Positions 4,964 to 32,254 of a DNA stretch of 32,800 nt are shown here, in pieces. Location of the stretch: the UHGV virus genome UHGV-0201141; one strand, 5' to 3'. This DNA is from a virus. How positions within the stretch are numbered: the first letter of the stretch is position 1; each line of letters opens with the position of its first letter. The translations under genes and the position numbers were made by a program. The notes under the pieces were generated by a model, which was not told the origin of the DNA, searched no databases, and saw only the letters and a list, made by a program, of their open reading frames with translations.

Positions 4964-5130
4964 TTGACCCAAATCGAAGTTACGAACAAGAAAGCGTCGA
5001 GCGGGCTTTAACGTGCGCTAACTGCGGTCAGAAGCTGCATGTGCTGGAAGTTCACGTGTGTGAGCACTGCTGTGCAGAACTGATGAGCGATCCGAATAGC
5101 TCAATGTACGAGGAAGAAGACGATGAGTGA
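4960..5130 (+). CDS. ninF: NinF (below track cutoff)
   Basis: GTG at 4960 overlapping NinE stop; product ...[54 protein letters not shown] resembles lambda NinF. Confidence 0.7.
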
Positions 5131-20377: not shown

Positions 20378-21790
20378 GTGGCAACTTGGCAACAGAGCAT
20401 CAACTCCGGTGGTTTTCTGGCTGGAATTGGTGCGCAAAATGAGAATGCGCCAAAGGCGAGTGATGTAAATGAGACACTGGCTTACATTCGTCAGAATAAT
20501 GAGGATGCCAGGCTTGGTCGCAACAATATCGGTCTGCAGGCTCTGCAGGGAATAACAAGCACAATGCAAGGATTGCAGCAATATGATCAGCAGAAGCAAG
20601 AGGCAGCATTCAGAAAGGATTATGCTTCTGCTATTCAATCAGGTGATCGACAGCAGGTGCGAGATTTGATGACCAAATATCCTGGTCAATTAGAGAAGAT
20701 TCAGTCTGGCATGAAGTGGGCAGACGAAGACCAGCGCAATTCTATCGGCACCTTAGCGGCTGGCGCACGCCTTGCGGCCTCGTCTCCAGAAGCAATGCAA
20801 TCATGGCTGCAAAACAACGCCAATGAGCTGGCGCGCGTCGGTGTTGACCCTAATAACGTTGCTCAGATGTATCAGCAGAATCCTTCAGGATTTGGTGAGT
20901 TTGTTGATCACCTTGGAATGGCTGCTCTTGGTCCGATTGACTACTTCAATGTTCAGGACAAGATGGCTGGTCGTGAGATTGACCGAGGCAGGCTGGCAGA
21001 GACAATCCGCAGCAATCAGGCTGGTGAAGCACTTCAGGCGAGAGGGCAAAACCTTTCCTATCAGTCAGCAATGACTGGGCACAATATCGCAGCACAACGC
21101 TTGGCTCTGGATCAGCAAGAGTTCGGGTTTAAGATGCAGCAAGCGCAGGAAAAGGCTCAGCAGTTGATTAGTGAAGCACCTAAGCTGTCAGTAAACATGG
21201 AAAAAGGCATCGAGACGGCCGTAAACAATGCTACAGCATCATCAAACTCAGCCAATTCTATGAGTGCGCTTGCTCAACAGTTCAGAGCAGAAAAACCAAC
21301 GACAGGTTTGTTCGGTAACGCACAGAACATGTTCGCAAAACTTACCGGAAGCGATACGACATTGCGTGATTTGCGCATTCGCCAAAATGCCCTTGTTAAC
21401 AGTCAGGTTCTTAAATTCCTACCTCCCGGCCCAGCAACGGATAAAGACGTTGAGATCGTTCGGCAGGGTGCGCCAACTGACATGGATAATCCTGAGACGG
21501 TCGCAAGATGGCTTGATGCGATGGCAAACCTTGAGCGACGAAACGCGCAGTTTAATGAGTTTAAAGCCGAGTGGATGAGCGCGAATGGCAACCCAGGACA
21601 ATCGCGCAATGGCGGTCAGATATTGGGGTTGGATGTTAAAAAAGGTGAATCATTGGGGAGTGCCGTTAAGCGGTATATGTCAATGAATACTGACGCAGCG
21701 CCAGCACAAGATTCGACTCCTTCAGGAGAACCACGGAATCAGGTTGGATCATATACCTCAAAATCAGGCATTCAATTTACGGTGGAATGA
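20378..21790 (+). CDS. Ejection protein (P22 gp20-like)
   Basis: 470 aa; position; GTG start with GGAGGTG RBS. Confidence 0.6.
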
Positions 21791-23628
21791 TGAAAGTAAC
21801 TGCAAACGGTAAGACATTTACCTTTCCTGATGGTACGAGCACCGAAGATATTGGCACCGCCATTGATGAGTATTTTGCTGGTCAGGCTGTTCAGCAACAA
21901 ACAGTTAATCAGGCCAATAATGCACCAACACGGGACGAACCATCATTGATGCAACAAGCTGGCGATTGGCTCACTGGTGGTCAAAGTGCAGGGCAAATTG
22001 CAGAACAGGCTGGTCGTGGTCTGGTAAACATACCATTTGACGTATTGCAGGGTGGCGCAAGTCTGATTAATGCAATCAGTCAGGGGCTTGGTGGGCCAAA
22101 AGTTTTAGATGATGTTTATCGTCCAGTAGACAAACCGACAGACCCATACGCACAAGCCGGTGAAACAATTGGTGGGTATTTAGTTCCAGGAGTTGGAACG
22201 GCAGGAAGCATGGCTATTGGATCGCTGGCAGAGGCCGCAAATCAGAAAGGCGATTTCGCACAAAATGCAGCCAAAAATGCCGGAGTTAACCTTGCCGCTC
22301 AGGGGGTTCTTTCCGCAGCAGCAAAGGGAATAGGGCGTGGAATAACGGCTATAAAAGGTGATATTGCGCCAGAGGTGGCGAAGAAAATTGCCACCTCAGA
22401 ATCGATGGGCGTGACACCAATGACATCTGATGTTATCCCGCCGAAAAATGCTTTCACTCGCGGCCTTACTCAGGACGCCGAGGGGGCTTTGCTCGGGACA
22501 GGCTCAAAGCGAGCGGAGCAATATGCAACGCGTAGTAAGCTGGTAAGCAATTATTTTGACCGTTTTGGTGAGTACAACCCTGATGATGTGGTGAAATCTC
22601 TGACCACCACGTTAAGGGGGCGGAAGGATGCTGCTGGCGCTGTTATCAATGACGTCACCAATAAAATGGGTAATGCCGCAGTTGATACCACAAATACCAT
22701 GAATGCTCTGAATACAGCGATCGCAAGACAGGAACGGCTTGGGACGTCTGCCAATCAAAGCCTGCTTACATCCTTGCGTAACCTACGTGAAGAATTAGCA
22801 AACCCTGCAACTGATTTGGATGTTACGTTTGATCTCTTGCGTCAGCACAGAACAGCATTTAGATCTAATGTTCAGGGAGATGCTATGGTCTTCCCCAACC
22901 AGGCAAAAGCAGCTACCAATATGGTAGAGAATGCAATGTCAAAAGACCTTCGTAACGCAGTTGCTAAAAACCTCGGTGCATCAGACGCAGCAAAATACCT
23001 TAAAGCAAATTCCGATTATGCAAACGTTTATAATAAGGTGCTTAATAAAAACATTGCCAACAAGCTCAACAAGGCAAGCAGTGAAGCCAGTCCTGAACTT
23101 ATAAATACCGTTGTATTAAGCAGAAAACCATCTGACGTGAAACGAATCTGGAGCGCACTGGATGATAAGGGGAAAGATGCTATGCGTGCAGCTTACGTCA
23201 GCAAAATAGCGGAAAAGGCCGGGGACTCTCCAGCCAAGTTCATCACTGAAGTTAATAAGCTGAAATCTCAGTCAGGCGGTGAAATTTACAACACTATTTT
23301 TTCTGGAAAGCACATGAAAGAGCTTGATGCTCTTCATGAAGTTCTACAGCAAACAGCAAGGTCAGACACCGCAAATGTAGTAACTCAGACGGGGCAATCG
23401 CAAGCCAACAGGATAAGGACGATTGGCGCAACTGCGACCCTTGGCGTATCAATGGGGCTTGAGGCTGGTTTTGGTGCAATGATGCGCTTGTATGAGTCCA
23501 AAGCAGCAAGGAATATGCTTCTTCGTTTGGCAAACACCAAAGCAGGAACACCAGCCTATGAAAGAGCGATAAATAACGCTGCGAATGCCATCAGACCGCT
23601 GTTTGCTACTGAGGCAACACAGCAGTAA
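21787..23628 (+). CDS. Ejection protein (P22 gp16-like)
   Basis: 613 aa; position; ATGATGA overlap with upstream gene. Confidence 0.6.
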
Positions 23629-23652
23629 CGTATGGGAAATTGGATTCAATCG

Positions 23653-24042
23653 CTAACATTTTCTTTTTACTTTTCCAACAAAAGCTTTGGTTGAATCCAT
23701 ATTTCCATAACCGGAAATGGTTTTTGACATTAAAACTGTTCCAGTAGGATGTATTACCCATGAGTCGATAACGCGTTGAGTTTCGCCATTCGCGCCGATT
23801 CCTATGATGGAGTTTTTAGACAATGCTTTGTAAGCCATGCCGCCCGCATCTGTCCCAGAATATGTGATGCTGGCATCTTCACCGTTTGTCTTAATGATGA
23901 ATGTTCCACTAAAACCATCTTCTTCCGGATGGAAATTATTTCGTTCTGAATAGCTTATTCCGCGCATATCTCCAACGACCCAGCACTCTGCTGTAGCCCC
24001 AAAAGATATGAATAAGAACATAGCAGTAAGAAATTGCTTCAC
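23653..24042 (-). CDS. Small secreted protein of unknown function (signal peptide, two Cys)
   Basis: GTG start at 24042 with AAGGAGG RBS 5 nt upstream; N-terminus MKQFLTAMFLFISFGATA then E, a typical Sec signal peptide. Confidence 0.6.
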   Translation of the reverse strand: MKQFLTAMFLFISFGATAECWVVGDMRGISYSERNNFHPEEDGFSGTFIIKTNGEDASITYSGTDAGGMAYKALSKNSIIGIGANGETQRVIDSWVIHPTGTVLMSKTISGYGNMDSTKAFVGKVKRKC

Positions 24043-24102
24043 GCCAACCTCCTTAGTTTTGAGCAGGATACCAGATGATAATGTGTCGCTTCCTAAAGGA
24101 TA

Positions 24103-24744
24103 TCAAAGCAACGGGATTTCAAGGTAAACTGCGGTTGCCAAAATACTAACATCTTCATTTCTAACAAGAATATTAGGATACATTGGGTTTAGGGATACTA
24201 GGTTTGTCTCTATTTCACCAATGTAAACCTGTTTGAAGCTCAATATTTGCTCTTTATCCAATGATGCTATTACATAATCTTTGCTTTTAGCTTTTACTAG
24301 AGGGCTGAACGTGACAACCGATCCTCTGGGAAAGCTAATACCTGAACTTGTAGTCATAGCTTCACCTTCAATAGTCAATGCAAATGCAGAGTCACCAACA
24401 TTGTATATTGCCGGATGAAATCTAGACGATGAATGTTCACCTGTGTTTAGGTAATGCATAACTTCATCTAGTTTGAGGATTGGTATTTGCTTTACCAGAA
24501 CGTCAGGCATGACGTTTTTTGTTCCCGGACCCTGACCTTCACCCAGAGCTAACCACTCAGCTGTAGTACCTAATGCGTTGGCTAATGCCTGCAATACCCG
24601 AAGCCGTGGTTTAGCCTCACCACCCTCGTATGCTGCTATTTGACGTTGAACAACACCAGCTAATTTTGACAACTGCGCCTGCGTCATACCCCTGGACTGT
24701 CTTGCCAGAGATACTCTTGATGGGAATTGATCGTCAAAATTCAT
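24103..24744 (-). CDS. CI-like repressor (HTH_XRE N-domain plus S24/LexA-like C-domain, apparently non-cleavable)
   Basis: N-terminal HTH (MTQAQLSKLAGVVQRQIAAYEGG); C-terminal segment DSAFALTIEGEAM...SFPRG...FKQV...LNPMYPNI parallels the lambda CI C-domain as I recall it, but with Ala where the catalytic Ser would be. Confidence 0.75.
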   Translation of the reverse strand: MNFDDQFPSRVSLARQSRGMTQAQLSKLAGVVQRQIAAYEGGEAKPRLRVLQALANALGTTAEWLALGEGQGPGTKNVMPDVLVKQIPILKLDEVMHYLNTGEHSSSRFHPAIYNVGDSAFALTIEGEAMTTSSGISFPRGSVVTFSPLVKAKSKDYVIASLDKEQILSFKQVYIGEIETNLVSLNPMYPNILVRNEDVSILATAVYLEIPLL

Positions 24745-24843: not shown

Positions 24844-25017
24844 ATGACTGAAAAGATATCTTCCATCAAGCCGCGTCAGGTTCGTTTTACAGAAAAGGTT
24901 GATTCACATATCCGCGAATCAGCAAAAAGATGCCATAGGTCAATTCAGGCAGAGATAGCTTATCGAATGGAGTTATTGATGAAACTTGAGGCAAAGGGCG
25001 ATGTTGTCATCCAATAA
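24844..25017 (+). CDS. Arc-like ribbon-helix-helix protein (57 aa, below track cutoff)
   Basis: ATG at 24844 with AGGAG RBS; small basic product with predicted N-terminal strand then helices, resembling Arc/Mnt-type RHH repressors; directly upstream of the antirepressor. Confidence 0.55.
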   Translation: MTEKISSIKPRQVRFTEKVDSHIRESAKRCHRSIQAEIAYRMELLMKLEAKGDVVIQ

Positions 25018-25090
25018 AAATAGTGAAGCCCGGCAGTGCGCGAACACAAACCGGGCCTCTATGTCAGTAACCGTATGCAAGGAAACTAAC

Positions 25091-25717
25091 ATGAATATTG
25101 TAGCAAAATCAGATTACAACTTCCACGGAGTTGAGTTGGTGCCCACCCGTGATATGCATGGTGTTTGGTTTACGTCATCTAATATTGCATCTGCACTTAA
25201 ATATGCAAATAGCCGTGCAGTAACAATGATTTATAACAAGTATAGCGATGAGTTTAGCACCGGAATGACTCAGGTACTCGAAGTGAGTACCTCAGGAAAT
25301 TATCGCAAAAAAGTGCGAGTTTTCTCACTACGCGGTGCCCACCTAATCGCGATGTTTGCTCGCACTCCGGTAGCAAAAGAGTTCCGCCGCTGGGTGCTGG
25401 ATATTTTGGATCGGCAGGCAGAATGCTCACCGATTGCAAAACAGTTTACTGACGAAGAACTGGTTAATCTCTGCTACTTACAATTGTGGATGGAGAAGAG
25501 TCAACAAATGTGCAAACACATCTACCCAGGAATGAAGCAAATTTGTTCTGAGCTTTCAGGAAGGATTTACGATATCGCATATGAGACTCGCTATATGTCA
25601 GAAGAAACCAAGAAATCACTTCTTCGTGAAATGAAGAATCTTGATACCAACAATTTTGTCGTAAAGAACGCTCAGCCAATGCTGGCAAAACTGCGCGGCG
25701 AGGAATGGATTCATTGA
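25091..25717 (+). CDS. Antirepressor, Bro-N domain family
   Basis: N-terminus MNIVAKSDYNFHGVELVPTRDMHGVWFTSSNIASALKY fits the Bro-N pattern; AAGGA RBS; the track start at 24986 overlaps the arc-like gene and is rejected. Confidence 0.65.
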   Translation: MNIVAKSDYNFHGVELVPTRDMHGVWFTSSNIASALKYANSRAVTMIYNKYSDEFSTGMTQVLEVSTSGNYRKKVRVFSLRGAHLIAMFARTPVAKEFRRWVLDILDRQAECSPIAKQFTDEELVNLCYLQLWMEKSQQMCKHIYPGMKQICSELSGRIYDIAYETRYMSEETKKSLLREMKNLDTNNFVVKNAQPMLAKLRGEEWIH

Positions 25718-25805
25718 TTGGTGCGCCGGACGGCGCAAAAAGAAAACCGCCAGTGTGCTGCTGGCGGCCTATGTCACACCCTTACTACCACATAAGGAAT
25801 GCCTA

Positions 25806-26534
25806 ATGACTTTTAAGAATGTAGCAAACATCGGATCCGTTGTCACGGATAAAACCATTGACAGCCAGCGCCTTCTTGAGATGGTAAATCAGGCTCGTAG
25901 ACAGTGCGGTGAGCCGGAGGTTCGTAATAACAAATTCATCGAGAAAATTGAAGATGAATTGGATGGAGAGCACTACACAAAAAGTGTAGTGCAAAAAGCG
26001 AACAAAACTTCGATGGTTATCATTGAGATGTCAATCAAGCAAGCATTGCGAGTTGCCGCTCGCGAGTCAAAAGCCGTTCGCCGCTCACTGGTAGACCAAC
26101 TTGAAAGTATGCAAGAAGCGCACATTAAAAGCGGTAAATCAGCGAGTGGACTTGTTGAGTATCGTCAAGCGCGAACATTGAAAATGACGGTTGAAGCTGT
26201 TACCAATCTGTTCGATCTGATGCCAAATCTTGCGCCTGAGGCAAAGCAGACAGCGGCAGCAAGTATAATCAACCCGCTCGTTGGTTTTAATGCAATACCT
26301 CTTCCGGCAATAGAAGAGCATTACTACTCAGCAGGGGAGGTTGCAGAGCAGCTTGGAGTAACGGCCAACAAGATTGGTCGCATTGCTAACGCAAACAACC
26401 TCAAAACTGAGCAGTACGGGAAGTTCTTCCTGGATAAATCGGCGCATTCCAGCAAACAGGTAGAGGCGTTCCGTTACAATTCTGAAGGCGTTAAAGCACT
26501 ACAACACCTACTACATGGCTCAAATGTGGCGTAA
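25806..26534 (+). CDS. Hypothetical protein (possible antirepressor-associated or DNA-binding protein)
   Basis: ATG at 25806 with AAGGA RBS; track start at 25755 is a GTG inside a hairpin; last gene of the + strand operon before a terminator. Confidence 0.5.
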   Translation: MTFKNVANIGSVVTDKTIDSQRLLEMVNQARRQCGEPEVRNNKFIEKIEDELDGEHYTKSVVQKANKTSMVIIEMSIKQALRVAARESKAVRRSLVDQLESMQEAHIKSGKSASGLVEYRQARTLKMTVEAVTNLFDLMPNLAPEAKQTAAASIINPLVGFNAIPLPAIEEHYYSAGEVAEQLGVTANKIGRIANANNLKTEQYGKFFLDKSAHSSKQVEAFRYNSEGVKALQHLLHGSNVA

Positions 26535-26553: not shown

Positions 26554-26577
26554 AACCCGCTTAATCGCGGGTTTTTT
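26554..26577. terminator. Terminator hairpin between convergent genes
   Basis: Stem AACCCGC / GCGGGTT followed by TTTTTT on the + strand; overlaps the stop codon of the mnt-like gene. Confidence 0.6.
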
Positions 26578-26818
26578 CTTTCCTTAGAATTTCAGCCGCA
26601 ACTTCTTTTACTCGTTCCGAGATTAATGAGGCCAGCCTCTCTTCTTCATCACGATACCCGCTTACAGGTGATGGTTTGGAGAGCGATTCTTCCATCGTAG
26701 CCACAATTTCGGAATTGATAGACCTGTTATTCATTTTTGCACGTTGCTTAATCTTGGCGTGCAACTCGTGCGTAAGCCTCAAGTGGAACTGCGCCTCATC
26801 GTATTTGCTGTACATCAT
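26561..26818 (-). CDS. mnt: Mnt-like ribbon-helix-helix repressor
   Basis: 85-aa product with F.LR...E...K.K.RA..N.RS.NSE...LSKPSPVSGYR...ERLA pattern resembling P22 Mnt as I recall it; the 217-aa track ORF is an over-extension across the tailspike start. Confidence 0.7.
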   Translation of the reverse strand: MMYSKYDEAQFHLRLTHELHAKIKQRAKMNNRSINSEIVATMEESLSKPSPVSGYRDEEERLASLISERVKEVAAEILRKEKTRD

Positions 26819-26950
26819 CAATGCCTCACCAAATGGGTGGAATGGCATCGTAAAACCTACTGTACAAATCAACAATCGTACCGTTTCGGTATGCAACAAA
26901 TACCAACCGTAGCCATGCTGCGGCGATTCCTTGTATCTGGAGCAAATTAA

Positions 26951-29656
26951 ATGACAGACATTACAGCCAATGTTGTAGTGAGCATGCCTTCGCAACTCTT
27001 CACTATGGCGCGTTCTTTTAAAGCCGTAGCTAATGGCAAAATTTATATCGGTAAAATTGACACTGACCCGGTAAATCCTGAAAACCAGATTCAGGTTTAT
27101 GTAGAGAACGAAGACGGTTCTCACATTCCTGTTTCGCAACCAATCATCATTAACGCTGCTGGTTATCCGGTATATAACGGACAGATTTCCAAATTCGTTA
27201 CCGTGCAAGGCCATTCTATGGCTGTTTATGATGCATATGGTGCTAAGCAGTTCTATTTTCCGAATGTGCTGAAGTATGACCCAGATCAGTTTGGCCCAGA
27301 CTTCAAAGAGCAGTTATCTCAATCAGGAGCATACATTAATGATGATTCAAAAGGTGATGCATTAATTGGGGTAAGGCAGCCATTTACCGGGGCTGTAACT
27401 ATAACTCAGCATGAAAACAATGCTCTTTTCTTAAATGTAAAACAATTTGGAGCAATTGGGGATGGGAAATATCATCCATTATCTGAGTGGTTTTCTTCAA
27501 TTTCTGAAGCAAAATCCTTATATCCTTTTGTTGACTCATTATCTCAGTCAATAGACTGGGCCGCGTGGCAAGCTGCCCTTAACACAGGAAAGGTTATTTA
27601 TGGTACTGATAATGCGTATGTAATAACGGATACGTTAACACCTGTTTCTGGTGGTGGGATAATTTGTCTTGGTGTGGGCAAATGGGTCTCAGGATATACT
27701 GCAACATTTGCTCCTGATATTACCACAGGGACCACATTCCTGATGTACGGTGTAGGAAATAAAAAATATACTGTAGATTGTGTTTCTAATATGGATGTTA
27801 GTGGTGGTGTGGTTTCTAATCCATCTTCCGAAGACCCGTATACAACAACGGCACCTGCGTCATCATATGATTTATTGGATTTTACTAACGGTGATGCTAA
27901 TGGGGCTACAAGAGCCACGCTTAAACCATTCTCTGCCGCAATATTGATGCCAGAGACAGGATGTGTTCGCCTTGAGAACTTTCGTATTGTTCCATATTTC
28001 AATGGGCTGGATGGTTATAAAGACATTGCAAATACCGGTCTTGGCGATGAGTGGGATGTAGGTATTTGGTCACGTGCGTCTTTTGGCAATGAATACCGCA
28101 ATTTGCAGGTGGTTGGATACTGGCGCAAGACGGCACTTTTAAAAACGAACATTCCTGTATCTGGCACGCTGGCCGCTCAGGGCGAGGATGAAAACTATTA
28201 TCACTGTAGATTCCAGGGATTCAAGGGTGTTTCGATCCGCGCCCATGATGTATTCCGAATTACAGCGGTAACGTCCAGCACTATCGAAATTCCATGGTCA
28301 GCAAGCCACACCTTCGAAACGTCCGGGGTTTTAAGATCTGTAGGCAGGAATTTCACTTATTCAGGATTATCCGTATCCGGTGATAAGTTAGTATTTACTG
28401 GAGTGTCTAACGCTTCTGAGGCAACAGTAGGTTCTACTATACGGCGAAATGACATAGATAACTTTGGTATGGCGGGAACGCAATTTTTCGATTGCTACAT
28501 TACCAGCCTGTATCACCACACACATCTGCTTGCCACATCGCAATACCTGTCTCAACCATTCAGCCGACCATCAGAGTGTATGGAGGTTTCAGGGGAACCA
28601 GTTCGCGGTGTACAGGTACATGCAGGAACCATTCAGGGATGGGATGATGTTCTTATTCATCTGCATGACTGTGGAAATATGAACTTTTACAGTACATATT
28701 TCGAAAGCCAGCAAGCATATGTAACTATAAATGGTGGTAATGCTATTGGTTATGGAGCACGTATGATAGCTTCCCGGCAATCAACAAGCTCATTACCATA
28801 TGCAGCAGGGAATACACGAGTGCTTAGAATGGTCGGGTGCTCTGAAGGCAATGGCGTTGACTGGGGTCCTGTATTTAACAACTATACAGGAGGAAGATAT
28901 AATTCTGGAGACGGTGTATTTAACCCCCGCGATGCATTTATAGACCATAAATCTCTTCCTGAGCAGTCAGGAGGTGAGTCAAGACTCGTATCACAAAAAG
29001 GAAATGCCAGAGTAGTATGTGGTGTTGGTAAAACTGTACTGCTTGGACCAACGTCAGGAGATTGTAATTTACAGAGTAATACCGGAAGTTTAAATATTAG
29101 AAGTGGGATAAGAGTAAGAGTCGGTCACGCTGATGGAACAGACTGGTGGTTGGCAGATGCTAATAAAATAGCTCCTGTTGATGATAATGTTAAAGCTATT
29201 GGACAGCCATCAAACAGATGCTCTGTTATCTATGCAGGAACCGGGTCAATCAATACATCAGATGAAACTCTTAAAACAAGATATGATATTCTTAATGCAG
29301 AGCGTGATGCCGCTATTGAAATAAAGTCAGTCATCTATAAATTTAAATTTAATGACTCAATTAATCACAAAGGAATTGAGTCGTCCAGGTATCATTTTGG
29401 CGTTGGCGCTCAAACCGTAGGGGATATTCTTAGAAAGCATGGTTTAAATCCTGAGCAATATGCTTTTTGGTGTTACGATGAATGGCCTGACGTATGGGAT
29501 GAAGAGGTGATAACTGAAGAGAGCACAGATCCTGATACAGGTGAGAAAATTTATTCTCAATATAAAACAGGAGATATGATTCTTGTAAAAAAAGCAGGAG
29601 GACGCTACGGAATTCGTTATGACGAATTGGCTATGTTTATATTAATGGCAATGTAG
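26951..29656 (+). CDS. Tailspike: P22-type head-binding N-domain, divergent receptor-binding domain, C-terminal intramolecular chaperone (peptidase S74-like)
   Basis: N-terminus [11 protein letters not shown]...[33 protein letters not shown]...LKYDPDQ matches the P22 gp9 N-domain; the last ~130 aa carry S74-chaperone-like motifs (TSDETLK...[11 protein letters not shown]). Confidence 0.8.
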
Positions 29657-29828: not shown

Positions 29829-31010
29829 CTATCTGAGATATAGCAATGTTGGTTGCTCCACCTTTTCATCAAGCCAGTCCGCCCACCACTGCATCATTTC
29901 TCTGCGCTTATCGAGATACTGAGCATGGTTGTAAATCCCGCGCACAGATCCGCCATTGGCATGTGCCAGTTGCACCTCAATAGCGTCAGCAGGCCATTCG
30001 TGCTCGTTCATAATCGTGCTGAATTCATGCCTGAATCCGTGACCGCTTTCCAGACCCTCATAGCCGATTTGTTTGATCACAAGTAGCACCGCGTTCTCGC
30101 AGATTGGCTTCTTCTTATCGTTGCGCCCGGCAAAAACAAACTCTGATACTGGTTTAGTGATTGAGCTTAGTGTAGTGAGAAGTTCAACCACCTGGTCTGA
30201 CATCGGGACAACATGAATTTTGCGTCCCTTCATCACACTGGCGTCGATGGTGATAATCATGTTTTCAAAATCGACGTTCTTCCATAGCATGGAACGAAGC
30301 TCTTTCGTTCTTAGGGCTGTGTAGCGTAAGACTTTGGTCGCAATGAGCGATACGATACTTCCTGAAAATGTTGCCAGTGCTTTGTTGAATGCAGGGATCT
30401 GGTCTGCTGGAAGAAACGGGAAGTTCTTCTTGCGGTATCCTTTCATGGCGTCTGCAAGGTCAGGTGCCGGGTTATATTTAGCCCTTCCGGTGACAATAGC
30501 GTAACGAAAAACCTCGCCGCATCTTCTGCGGGCTTTATTGGCTCGTTCCATTGCACCGCGATCTTCAAATCTGCGGATTACTTCCAGCAGTTGCATCGGC
30601 TCAATATCCTGAATCTCAAGACCGCCGATGATGGGCAAAATGTCGTCATCAAACATTTTGGCAAGTTCAGTCGCATACCCTACAGACCAGACTTGCTTCT
30701 TGTGCTCGTACCATTCCTTGTAAATGGCGCTAAAGGAATTGTTGTTAGACGAAGCCTTTTTCGCTTTTACCGGATCGATGCCAACCGAGATGTCTTTCCT
30801 CGCAGTCCATGCCTTATCCCTTGCCTCCTGCAAAGTCATAAGCGGATATTTTCCGACGGTCAGGATTTTCTCCTTACCGTCAATCTTGTAGCGAAGCTGC
30901 CATACCTTTTTCCCGGATACAGGGACATAAAGGTACAGGCCATTACCATCGAGAAGGCGGTATGGTTTTTCTTTCGGCTTTGCTGCTTCAATCTGCTTAA
31001 CGGTGAGCAT
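29829..31010 (-). CDS. intS: Tyrosine integrase, IntS/P4-like family
   Basis: C-terminal catalytic pattern HGFRHEFST...LAHANGGSVRGIYNHAQY; ATG at 31010 (MLTVKQIEAAKPKEKPYRL...) preferred over the track's GTG at 31046; lies beside the tRNA 3' end. Confidence 0.85.
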   Translation of the reverse strand: MLTVKQIEAAKPKEKPYRLLDGNGLYLYVPVSGKKVWQLRYKIDGKEKILTVGKYPLMTLQEARDKAWTARKDISVGIDPVKAKKASSNNNSFSAIYKEWYEHKKQVWSVGYATELAKMFDDDILPIIGGLEIQDIEPMQLLEVIRRFEDRGAMERANKARRRCGEVFRYAIVTGRAKYNPAPDLADAMKGYRKKNFPFLPADQIPAFNKALATFSGSIVSLIATKVLRYTALRTKELRSMLWKNVDFENMIITIDASVMKGRKIHVVPMSDQVVELLTTLSSITKPVSEFVFAGRNDKKKPICENAVLLVIKQIGYEGLESGHGFRHEFSTIMNEHEWPADAIEVQLAHANGGSVRGIYNHAQYLDKRREMMQWWADWLDEKVEQPTLLYLR

Positions 31011-31246
31011 GGGTAAAAATCCGGTGGGTAAAATTATTTTATCCACTTTTTACCCGTCATGGTGTGCGGCTGTCAACGATCTGACGCGAACCATTACGAA
31101 CTGTGAATCTATGGAAGGCTTGATATGCAGGGGATTTTGCGGACTAGTACGGATGGGAGCGAACTGATAAATGGTGTCCCCTGCAGGAATCGAACCTGCA
31201 ATTAGCCCTTAGGAGGGGCTCGTTATATCCATTTAACTAAGAGGAC
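31011..31246. other. Putative attL region (integrase-tRNA intergenic DNA plus tRNA 3' end)
   Basis: Inferred from the tRNA-int arrangement; core and arm sites not delimited because the second att copy lies outside the window. Confidence 0.4.
31172..31246 (-). tRNA. argW: tRNA-Arg (anticodon CCU)
   Basis: Reverse complement folds as a cloverleaf: acceptor stem GTCCTCT/AGGGGAC, anticodon stem AGCCC/GGGCT with loop CTCCTAA, T-loop TTCGATT, 3' CCA encoded. Confidence 0.9.
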
Positions 31247-31321
31247 AATGCGGCATGAGTATACCCGCTAATGGACTACGGGGTAAGTACACAGCCGCTC
31301 GATTGCTTAAACCCTCGCCAT

Positions 31322-32254
31322 TTATGCCGGGTTTTTATCATTTTTCTTAATGTTTTCCGCACGTTCTGCTTTTTGACGTGCTTCTACTTTGCGCTTGTTG
31401 CTCATGTCGTTACGAATCTGTGCATGACTCATTAACGCGAAGATAAAGGTGCCGCCGCAGATGTTCCCCGCTAAAGTAGGTAGTGCGAAGGGCCAGATGA
31501 AATCGCTCCAGTGCAGCGTGCCGTTAAACACCAGATAGAGGATTTCAACAGAACCGACAACGATGTGGGTGGTGTCACCCAGGGCAATAAGCCAGGTCAT
31601 CAATATAATCACCACAATCTTTGCCGCACCCGCTGCAGGAAACATCCATACCATAGTGGCGATCAGCCAGCCGGAAATGATCGCGTTGGCAAACATCTCG
31701 CTGGGGGTGTTCTTCATCACATCCATGCCGATTTTGACAAATGCATCGCGAGTTTCTTCATTGAAGATAGGCATATATTCAAATGCCCACGCAGCAATAC
31801 CTGTCCCGATAATATTACCCAGCAGCACGATGCCCCATAACCGCATAAGTAAGCCGACGTTGCTCATTGTCGGTTTTTGCATGACGGGTAGTACCGCAGT
31901 TACGGTGTTTTCGGTAAATAATTGCTGGCGGGCCATTATGACGATAATAAAACCAAAGGTATAACCGAGATTCTCCAGCAAGAAGCTGCCCGGCACGCCT
32001 TCCAGTTCGACATGAAATATCCCTTTTGCCAGTAGCGAAGCGCCCATCGACAGGCCCGCCGCAATGGCTGACCACAGTAGCGCCATTGCGTCGCGTTCCA
32101 GCTCTTTTTCACCATCCTGGCGGATATGCTCATGAATTGCCATCGCCCGGGAGGGGAGTCGGTCTTCATCTATTTCTATTTTTTTACCGCGCTCTTTTTC
32201 TTCGCTCTCAACTTCAATTTCGTCGCTGTGTTGATCAATTTTGTCGTTGTCCAT
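31322..32254 (-). CDS. yfdC: Formate/nitrite transporter family inner-membrane protein YfdC (host)
   Basis: 310-aa multi-TM protein; sequence and position next to argW match the E. coli yfdC-argW locus as I recall it. Confidence 0.8.
   Translation of the reverse strand: MDNDKIDQHSDEIEVESEEKERGKKIEIDEDRLPSRAMAIHEHIRQDGEKELERDAMALLWSAIAAGLSMGASLLAKGIFHVELEGVPGSFLLENLGYTFGFIIVIMARQQLFTENTVTAVLPVMQKPTMSNVGLLMRLWGIVLLGNIIGTGIAAWAFEYMPIFNEETRDAFVKIGMDVMKNTPSEMFANAIISGWLIATMVWMFPAAGAAKIVVIILMTWLIALGDTTHIVVGSVEILYLVFNGTLHWSDFIWPFALPTLAGNICGGTFIFALMSHAQIRNDMSNKRKVEARQKAERAENIKKNDKNPA

Follow-up and report, generated by a model that had tools for sequence, protein, structure and literature searches.

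The orf129 gene and its locus

The gene discussed here, orf129, encodes a protein of 129 residues and lies in the virus genome UHGV-0201141, of which a stretch of 32,800 nucleotides was analysed (the window). The window represents a P22-like prophage of the Lederbergvirus type, set in a chromosome of the E. coli type. Its genes follow the order replication, nin, lysis, terminase, portal, coat, gp7 (PF25688), gp20 (Inj_translocase) and a gene 16 homologue, after which come orf129 and a CI-like gene on the minus strand, an operon of arc-like, Bro-N antirepressor and second antirepressor genes on the plus strand, and then, again on the minus strand, an Arc/Mnt-like gene; a 901-residue tailspike, the integrase and a host gene of the formate/nitrite-transporter family close the series. 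This gene order puts orf129 between gene 16 and an immI-like region, where P22 has its sieA gene, and so agrees with the first-pass annotation of this DNA, a reading of the letters alone, which had placed the gene where P22 keeps superinfection-exclusion genes. The features of the locus are collected in Table 1.

Table 1. Position of orf129, its parts and its nearest neighbours in the window
Feature	Position	Strand	Description	Basis
Gene 16 homologue	21787-23628	+	convergent with orf129	
Hairpin just 3' of orf129 stop	23595-23626	-	inside 3' end of convergent gene 16, no U-tract; weak	RNA fold
orf129 coding sequence	23653-24042	-	129-residue precursor; GTG start 24042-24040, TAG stop 23655-23653	open reading frame (ORF) listing and sequence
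Mature protein, residues 19-129 (111 residues)	23656-23988	-	isoelectric point ~7; grand average of hydropathy -0.33 (hydrophilic)	composition
Signal peptide, codons 1-18, MKQFLTAMFLFISFGATA	23989-24042	-	predicted signal peptidase I cleavage before E19	sequence and family statistics
Shine-Dalgarno sequence AAGGAGG	24048-24054	-	5-nucleotide spacer to the orf129 GTG	sequence
Promoter-like string TTGATA (24106-24101), 17 nucleotides, CATTAT (24083-24078)	24078-24106	-	overlaps stop codon of CI-like gene; weak	scan, 9/12 matches
CI-like repressor gene	24103-24744	-	213 residues; 60 bp upstream of orf129, same strand	Pfam HTH_3 9e-13 and Peptidase_S24 1e-12

We consider orf129 a real, conserved gene because the mature part of the protein has a ratio of nonsynonymous to synonymous divergence (pN/pS) of 0.14 against an 87%-identical allele, because exactly the same protein is found in 2809 blocks of the assembly collection, and because it has relatives in 190 clusters. 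A chance ORF is rejected by the same ratio and the same set of clusters. The ribosome binding site is strong and is conserved in every context with this allele, and it also stands ahead of an alternative cassette of 62 residues that is described below.

As to expression, the distance of 60 bp from the same-strand CI-like gene, reported in the first-pass annotation, is exact, and the terminator scan found no terminator-like site in this gap. The CI-like gene is probably the source of orf129 transcription in the lysogen. The promoter that the first-pass annotation had proposed for the gene itself fares less well: the string is present where it had been placed, but promoter-like sites are below expectation in this region (2 per 1.7 kb, as compared to 4.3 +/- 2.1 in shuffled sequences), and where the upstream neighbour differs only the -10-like part and the ribosome binding site of the leader are kept. 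The statistical and comparative support for a separate promoter does not go beyond the -10-like element; transcription that continues from the CI-like gene into orf129 would be a simpler way of expressing it. At the other end of the gene, RNA folding of 23570-23660 on the minus strand gives -26.4 kcal/mol (z = -2.6 against shuffles), and the hairpin found there, which the terminator scan does not call, may perhaps be a 3' end or a stabiliser.

A secretion signature that is general in the family

The precursor begins with MKQFLTAMFLFISFGATA followed by ECW, with lysine in the n-region, a hydrophobic core of 11 residues and alanine at both -3 and -1. The signal peptide is the sole hydrophobic segment of the protein, and the remainder is all-beta. 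There are exactly two cysteines, C20 and C129, i.e. the second and the last residue of the mature chain.

The same signature recurs in the family to which orf129 belongs. In an alignment of 122 diverse full-length members, which we use throughout as the family alignment, the residue at -1 is A, S or G in 108 of the 122 and the one at -3 is A, S, V or T in 100, while K or R occupies the n-region in 119; the median core hydrophobicity is 2.8, and most members have one polar residue between the A-x-A motif and the cysteine. Only two columns do not vary at all, those of C20 and C129; G28 and G123 are nearly invariant. Many distant members have a second pair of cysteines in mid-chain, with a spacing of about 10 residues. 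Thus the signal peptide and the two cysteines near the ends of the mature protein, both pointed out in the first-pass annotation, are properties not only of orf129 but of the 122 aligned members as well. A lipoprotein was considered and rejected, as the cleavage site reads G-A-T-A/E-C, with E in front of the cysteine and no lipobox of the form [LVI][ASTVI][GAS]C. All the sequence criteria that we could apply mark the product as secreted, and a soluble, oxidised periplasmic protein appears to be the most economical reading of it.

Relationship to Hex of phage 434 and gp38 of Sf6

The first-pass annotation had recognised no family, and in this respect it has to be corrected. orf129 matches PHROG 2651 ('unknown function') at E 2.9e-61, with no other PHROG at E <= 0.1, and the Hex protein of phage 434 matches the same PHROG at E 1.4e-58. 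BLASTP aligns orf129 with 434 Hex over residues 1-129, the full length (3e-12, 27% identity), and hhalign joins the orf129 subfamily to the Hex subfamily with 99.5% probability (E 1.3e-22). A relaxed tblastn search of phage genomes gave 27%-identical full-length matches in 434, lambda imm434, HK446, HK633, Sf6 (gene 38), Sf101, Huey and Chlobot; where the annotation shows a repressor, the match lies directly after cI (434, lambda imm434, HK446, Sf101 and Huey). The hex gene of 434 is annotated as 'repressor protection protein', and the 434 and Sf6 regions were examined in detail. The annotators of phage Emek had earlier noted the likeness of their 97%-identical orf129 to Sf6 gp38.

An exhaustive search with hidden Markov models retrieved 190 clusters of relatives (50% identity) at E <= 0.001. 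Inspection of 144 members showed that nearly all are stand-alone proteins of 120-140 residues, a few calls being truncated or N-terminally extended. The hosts are prophages from Enterobacterales to Aeromonas and Cellvibrio. A locus search with an alignment of 29 sequences gave three loci (Cellvibrio, Edwardsiella and Aeromonas), and a third round of homologue searching, based on the alignment of 122 sequences, brought hardly any new members. Pfam has no match for orf129 or for any of the 122 members, and NCBIfam, PADLOC and the sequence profiles of the PDB have none for orf129. In the window itself no second copy of the family was found.

Judged by its sequence, orf129 is therefore a divergent member of a known, poorly understood family, Hex / Sf6 gp38 (PHROG 2651), and not a new kind of element; that it is both a member of this family and exported, in short an exported Hex-family moron, we hold with high confidence. 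A structural component of the virion was also considered and rejected, given that the gene is on the strand opposite to the late operon, that its product has a signal peptide and that it is absent from most P22-like phages.

orf129 and 434 Hex have several features of architecture in common. The homology extends over the full length, the size is the same, the signal peptide is followed by x-C-W, the C-terminus reads F-V-G-x-V-x-x-x-C, both proteins are predicted to form nine-strand barrels, and the gene is downstream of a prophage repressor on the same strand; Sf6 gp38 and the proteins of HK446, HK633 and Sf101 are homologues of Hex. There are also clear differences. Firstly, orf129 belongs to a separate subfamily and lies in the immI/sieA slot by gene 16 rather than in immC, a location that is new for the family. 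Secondly, it follows another repressor (28% identical to 434 cI) and does so after a gap of 60 bp, as opposed to an overlap of 4 bp. Thirdly, identical copies of orf129 elsewhere have no repressor gene upstream.

Predicted fold

Nine strands and, apart from the signal peptide, no helix are seen in the AlphaFold model of orf129 (mean predicted local distance difference test score, pLDDT, 88.8; predicted template modelling score, pTM, 0.77), and the beta-rich composition mentioned in the first-pass annotation is thus borne out by an all-beta mature part. The protein is predicted to be a small closed up-and-down beta-barrel. Since the first modelled strand (residues 19-32) and the last (115-128) should be neighbours in such a barrel, C20 would come to lie beside C129, and we suggest on the basis of the model that a C20-C129 disulfide staples the first and last strands together. 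The model of 434 Hex (pLDDT 85.2, pTM 0.76) has nine strands, and a comparison of strand order shows the same arrangement as in orf129. A Foldseek search of the orf129 model against PDB and BFVD gave no match at E < 1e-3, and a structural match to PhiA is weaker than the matches to plainly unrelated barrels. The profile and fold searches that the first-pass annotation had recommended thus give a profile match to the Hex family and a predicted barrel with no specific structural relative.

A barrel of this size raises the question whether orf129 could be a small outer-membrane protein of the PagP/OmpX/Lom kind. The Hex homologue of phage Huey (PQ850609.1, 25928-26323) in fact bears the label 'antimicrobial peptide resistance and lipid A acylation protein PagP', which was probably given in error on the strength of a generic small-barrel fold. 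The details of the model fit such a location poorly: four of the nine strands are only 5-6 residues long, and a face free of polar residues is found on one of nine strands in orf129 and on two of nine in Hex, albeit by a crude test without positive control. The beta-signals of outer-membrane proteins typically end in an aromatic residue, while orf129 ends in KRKC. With the invariant pair of cysteines at the termini and no match to a Pfam family of outer-membrane proteins, we regard a membrane-embedded barrel as very improbable.

Genomic contexts

The contexts of the family were compared in about 30 sampled places. In P22-like prophages the identical orf129 protein is always encoded convergently with gene 16, but what lies upstream of it differs: it can be a Mnt gene together with a gene of 139 residues on the opposite strand, a gap of 418 bp after an arc gene, or the CI-like gene as in the window. 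The first of these is the commonest; here the 139-residue gene (PHROG 6823; locus L013, 5464-5883, minus strand) separates mnt from orf129 and has the opposite orientation. The first 20 residues of its product weakly resemble the signal of the Cor lipoprotein, which makes the gene a possible further envelope moron.

The 87%-identical allele comes third in an operon with the order mnt / Rap1a-like / orf129. This operon is found in many P22-like prophages (loci L004-L008, 4399-5390), and its middle gene belongs to PF18602, an immunity fold of the type VI secretion system (T6SS), and to PHROG 3870; a periplasmic immunity gene of the T6SS type is thus carried as prophage cargo in the sieA slot. 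Genes of the Hex subfamily overlap the 434-type cI gene by 4 bp in 434, Sf6 and prophages of Enterobacter, Yersinia and Klebsiella, and a distant family member overlaps a repressor of 121 residues that has no S24 domain. Altogether four types of maintenance repressor are found upstream of family members: the 434-type cI, the CI-like protein, Mnt (via the Rap1a-like gene) and the 121-residue non-S24 repressor. Other members have no repressor nearby and are located beside an integrase (Aeromonas), at the end of a P2-like prophage (Rahnella) or before a terminase. A position after a same-strand maintenance repressor is found for orf129 in the window but is not universal in the family.

The CI-like gene, for its part, mostly occurs without orf129. 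Among 5426 complete E. coli genomes 264 carry the CI-like gene, and only two of these 264 have orf129 behind it. In E. coli UTAK-8 the place of orf129 is taken by an unannotated ORF for 62 hydrophobic residues (L019, 3821-4009, minus strand; PHROG 21338, no Pfam match) with two predicted transmembrane segments. This ORF is preceded by the same promoter-like string and ribosome binding site and has the same GTG-AAG start as orf129, which suggests a point of cassette exchange at the start codon. An unannotated gap of 266 bp in phage JEP4 (L027, 2368-2633) is in the same place and has the same length. A second kind of joint is seen within the gene. Between orf129 and the L004 allele the synonymous divergence (pS) is 0.81 in the signal-peptide codons (23989-24042 and 5001-5054, respectively) but 0.14 in the mature part, so that only the former are almost saturated with changes, and this difference points to a mosaic recombination joint at the boundary between signal peptide and mature protein. 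The varied upstream repressors or their absence, the co-occurrence in only two of 264 genomes, the replacement by the 62-residue ORF and the mosaic alleles are what one expects of a moron, i.e. of a cassette put where the prophage has lysogen-active transcription, and not of the partner of one repressor.

The published role of Hex

Hex is the only member of the family with a genetic history. According to PMC3564112, which cites Susskind & Botstein 1980, Hex owes its name to the heterologous exclusion of P22 that is shown by Salmonella lysogens carrying lambda imm434, an exclusion that is missing from hex- lysogens. In lysogens the transcript from PRM of 434 extends across hex, as seen by reverse transcription PCR (Shkilnyj, Colon and Koudelka, PMC3564112). 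The same work describes a different activity. A hex::cat replacement makes lambda imm434 induce spontaneously about 30-fold more, only in recA+ hosts, and sHex made from a plasmid restores about 7-fold; sHex is a 6-kDa fragment obtained from a fusion of Hex to maltose-binding protein and spans Glu43 to Asn103 of a 158-residue frame (61 residues). When purified, sHex inhibits RecA-stimulated cleavage in vitro, both that of the 434 repressor and that of the P22 repressor, and overproduction of full-length Hex is toxic (PMC3564112).

Applied to orf129, these data would mean that the product or a fragment of it stays in the cytoplasm and shields the adjacent S24-type repressor from RecA-stimulated autocleavage, thereby lowering spontaneous induction. 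The induction of hex::cat, the restoration by sHex and the inhibition of cleavage in vitro all speak for this (PMC3564112), as does the arrangement of the genes, given that orf129 follows a repressor with HTH and S24 domains and that the Hex subfamily is always joined to a 434-type cI by the 4-bp overlap. The properties of the proteins speak against it. A cleavable signal peptide and a terminal pair of cysteines throughout the family indicate an exported, oxidised protein. When the 434 sequence is translated (L002, 2929-3405), Glu43 of the 158-residue frame turns out to be the E of ANS/ECW, so that sHex starts exactly at the predicted signal peptidase site. In the AlphaFold model of Hex, sHex corresponds to strands 1-5 out of nine and is without the C-terminal cysteine, which by this model implies that it cannot adopt the native fold. 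Both the toxicity of Hex and the terminus at E43 would be expected of an exported protein. In addition, the cat cassette has its own promoter and terminator and sits at the 3' end of cI, where it could alter the expression of cI itself.

The genomic contexts point in the same direction, since the family also follows repressors that are not of the S24 type (Mnt and the 121-residue protein) or no repressor at all, and 262 of the 264 E. coli genomes with the CI-like gene have it without orf129. We therefore think it improbable that repressor protection is the function of orf129. The published cytoplasmic activity is not disproved by this, but it is hard to reconcile with the secretion signature of the family, because the export signal and the disulfide are what is most conserved and because a non-cleavable repressor or none is often upstream. 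In the literature we found no mention of a signal peptide in Hex, and likewise no further detail on the original exclusion phenotype. The secretion signature of the family matters more than orf129 itself, as it is in conflict with the only published mechanism of Hex. The two phenotypes, exclusion of P22 by 434 lysogens and the readier induction of hex mutants, would seem to need experimental separation.

A candidate periplasmic exclusion factor

The sequence of events that we infer for orf129 is as follows. In the lysogen the gene would be transcribed by read-through from the CI-like gene, possibly aided by a weak promoter of its own around the -10-like element. The product would be exported by the Sec pathway, cleaved before E19 and oxidised between C20 and C129, and the mature protein of about 111 residues would be a small soluble barrel in the periplasm. 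There it might bind a part of the trans-envelope DNA-delivery apparatus of an incoming phage, or an envelope component that this apparatus needs. For P22-like phages the target could be the needle and the gp7/gp20/gp16 conduit, and the DNA would then fail to reach the cytoplasm. We put the chances of this explanation as a whole, an exported Hex-family barrel that acts in heterotypic exclusion from the periplasm, at about even. Superinfection exclusion as such is the most likely function because Hex is named for excluding P22; this is an argument by analogy, and we make the assignment tentatively, with a confidence that stays slightly below an even chance.

The first-pass annotation had called the product a candidate exclusion factor or other lysogenic-conversion function. 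As 434 Hex is named for its exclusion of P22, this proposal now has a precedent in a homologue, and the sieA slot and the secretion signature agree with it, while exclusion itself and expression in the lysogen are still what we infer. Several points weigh against exclusion from the periplasm. The localisation of orf129 rests on sequence rules, and Hex is the only genetically studied member of the family, so that exclusion is extended to the orf129 subfamily by analogy. If the exclusion by Hex were abortive and took place after entry, it would be hard to achieve for a periplasmic protein. The sole biochemistry of a homologue is the cytoplasmic activity on repressors (PMC3564112). Finally, the Rap1a-like neighbour implies that the slot also carries periplasmic genes unrelated to phages.

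This last point leads to a further possibility, namely that orf129 acts in periplasmic lysogenic conversion without excluding phages, either as an inhibitor of, or immunity protein to, T6SS peptidoglycan effectors, lysozymes or colicins, or as a ligand-binding barrel that serves host fitness. The Rap1a-like gene (PF18602) directly upstream in the mnt operon of related P22-like prophages is in line with this, the fold class is inhibitor-like, and the high divergence with only structural residues invariant is what one expects of a binder engaged in an arms race. A comparison can also be drawn with the MliC/PliC and Rap1a-type proteins, which are small, reside in the periplasm and neutralise enzymes that arrive from outside to degrade the envelope; the MliC/PliC proteins are 8-stranded barrels. 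The searches offer no specific link: none of the 122 family members has a Pfam MliC match at E <= 1 or a match to another Pfam family, PADLOC and NCBIfam are silent, and PhiA scores below unrelated barrels. Moreover, all contexts seen are phages or prophages, none beside T6SS or toxin genes, and the only genetic phenotype in the family concerns phage exclusion. Conversion of this kind strikes us as unlikely, although it is the main alternative to exclusion.

It is instructive to compare the proposed exclusion by orf129 with systems that are better understood. SieA of P22 is expressed from the prophage and blocks the gp16/gp20 conduit at an envelope step; it is a three-transmembrane protein of the inner membrane of about 160 residues, without a signal peptide, and only 22 of 66 P22-like phages have sieA (PMC10883804). 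orf129 resembles it in position, i.e. in a slot convergent with gene 16 before immI and on the strand opposite to the late genes, and by analogy in its presumed role. The proteins are different, since orf129 is a predicted cleaved soluble barrel without the three transmembrane segments. Sim of P1, Sp of T4 and the lipoproteins Cor and Llp are other small exported exclusion proteins, of the periplasm or envelope, made by a resident phage; they keep the DNA of a second phage from entering, either at the receptor or once adsorption has taken place. No relation of sequence or fold between these and orf129 was found; T4 Sp is helical rather than a barrel, and orf129 has no lipobox, unlike Cor and Llp.

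Going one step further, we speculate that the Hex family as a whole (about 190 clusters) might consist of disulfide-stapled periplasmic barrels that jam the trans-periplasmic DNA conduit of phages. The family would then be the soluble equivalent of the membrane protein SieA, its genes being exchanged, cassette for cassette, with those of small membrane proteins downstream of a common ribosome binding site, and the protection of repressor by Hex would be a side effect of a misfolded half-barrel and a polar allele. This generalisation is doubtful at present. orf129 is very common, being found in the 2809 blocks mentioned above, and it is annotated everywhere as hypothetical, so the link to Hex gives it a function that can be tested. 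If the periplasmic reading is true, the family would be a simple soluble probe for the trans-envelope DNA delivery of short-tailed phages, a step that is poorly understood, and it would represent a further prophage defence that is missed by the catalogues of defence systems, as the lack of a PADLOC match indicates.

Other observations in the window

The CI-like gene is divergent from an operon on the plus strand that consists of the arc-like gene (24844-25017), the antirepressor with Bro-N and P22AR domains (24986-25717) and the second antirepressor (25755-26534); in P22 this place is held by Mnt. With a repressor of the S24 type in control of the immI-like region, expression of the antirepressors would be SOS-responsive. 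The ORF at 26561-27214 (minus strand, 217 residues) is over-extended and overlaps the start of the tailspike. Its Arc/Mnt-like domain is at residues 140-185, and annotated homologues have 95 residues, which corresponds to 26561-26848 with a start at M123. The integrase (29829-31046, minus strand) is followed by the host formate/nitrite-transporter-family gene (31322-32254, minus strand), so that the prophage has its right end, together with the attachment site, within the window at about 31050-31320. Locus L013 shows the same site of insertion.

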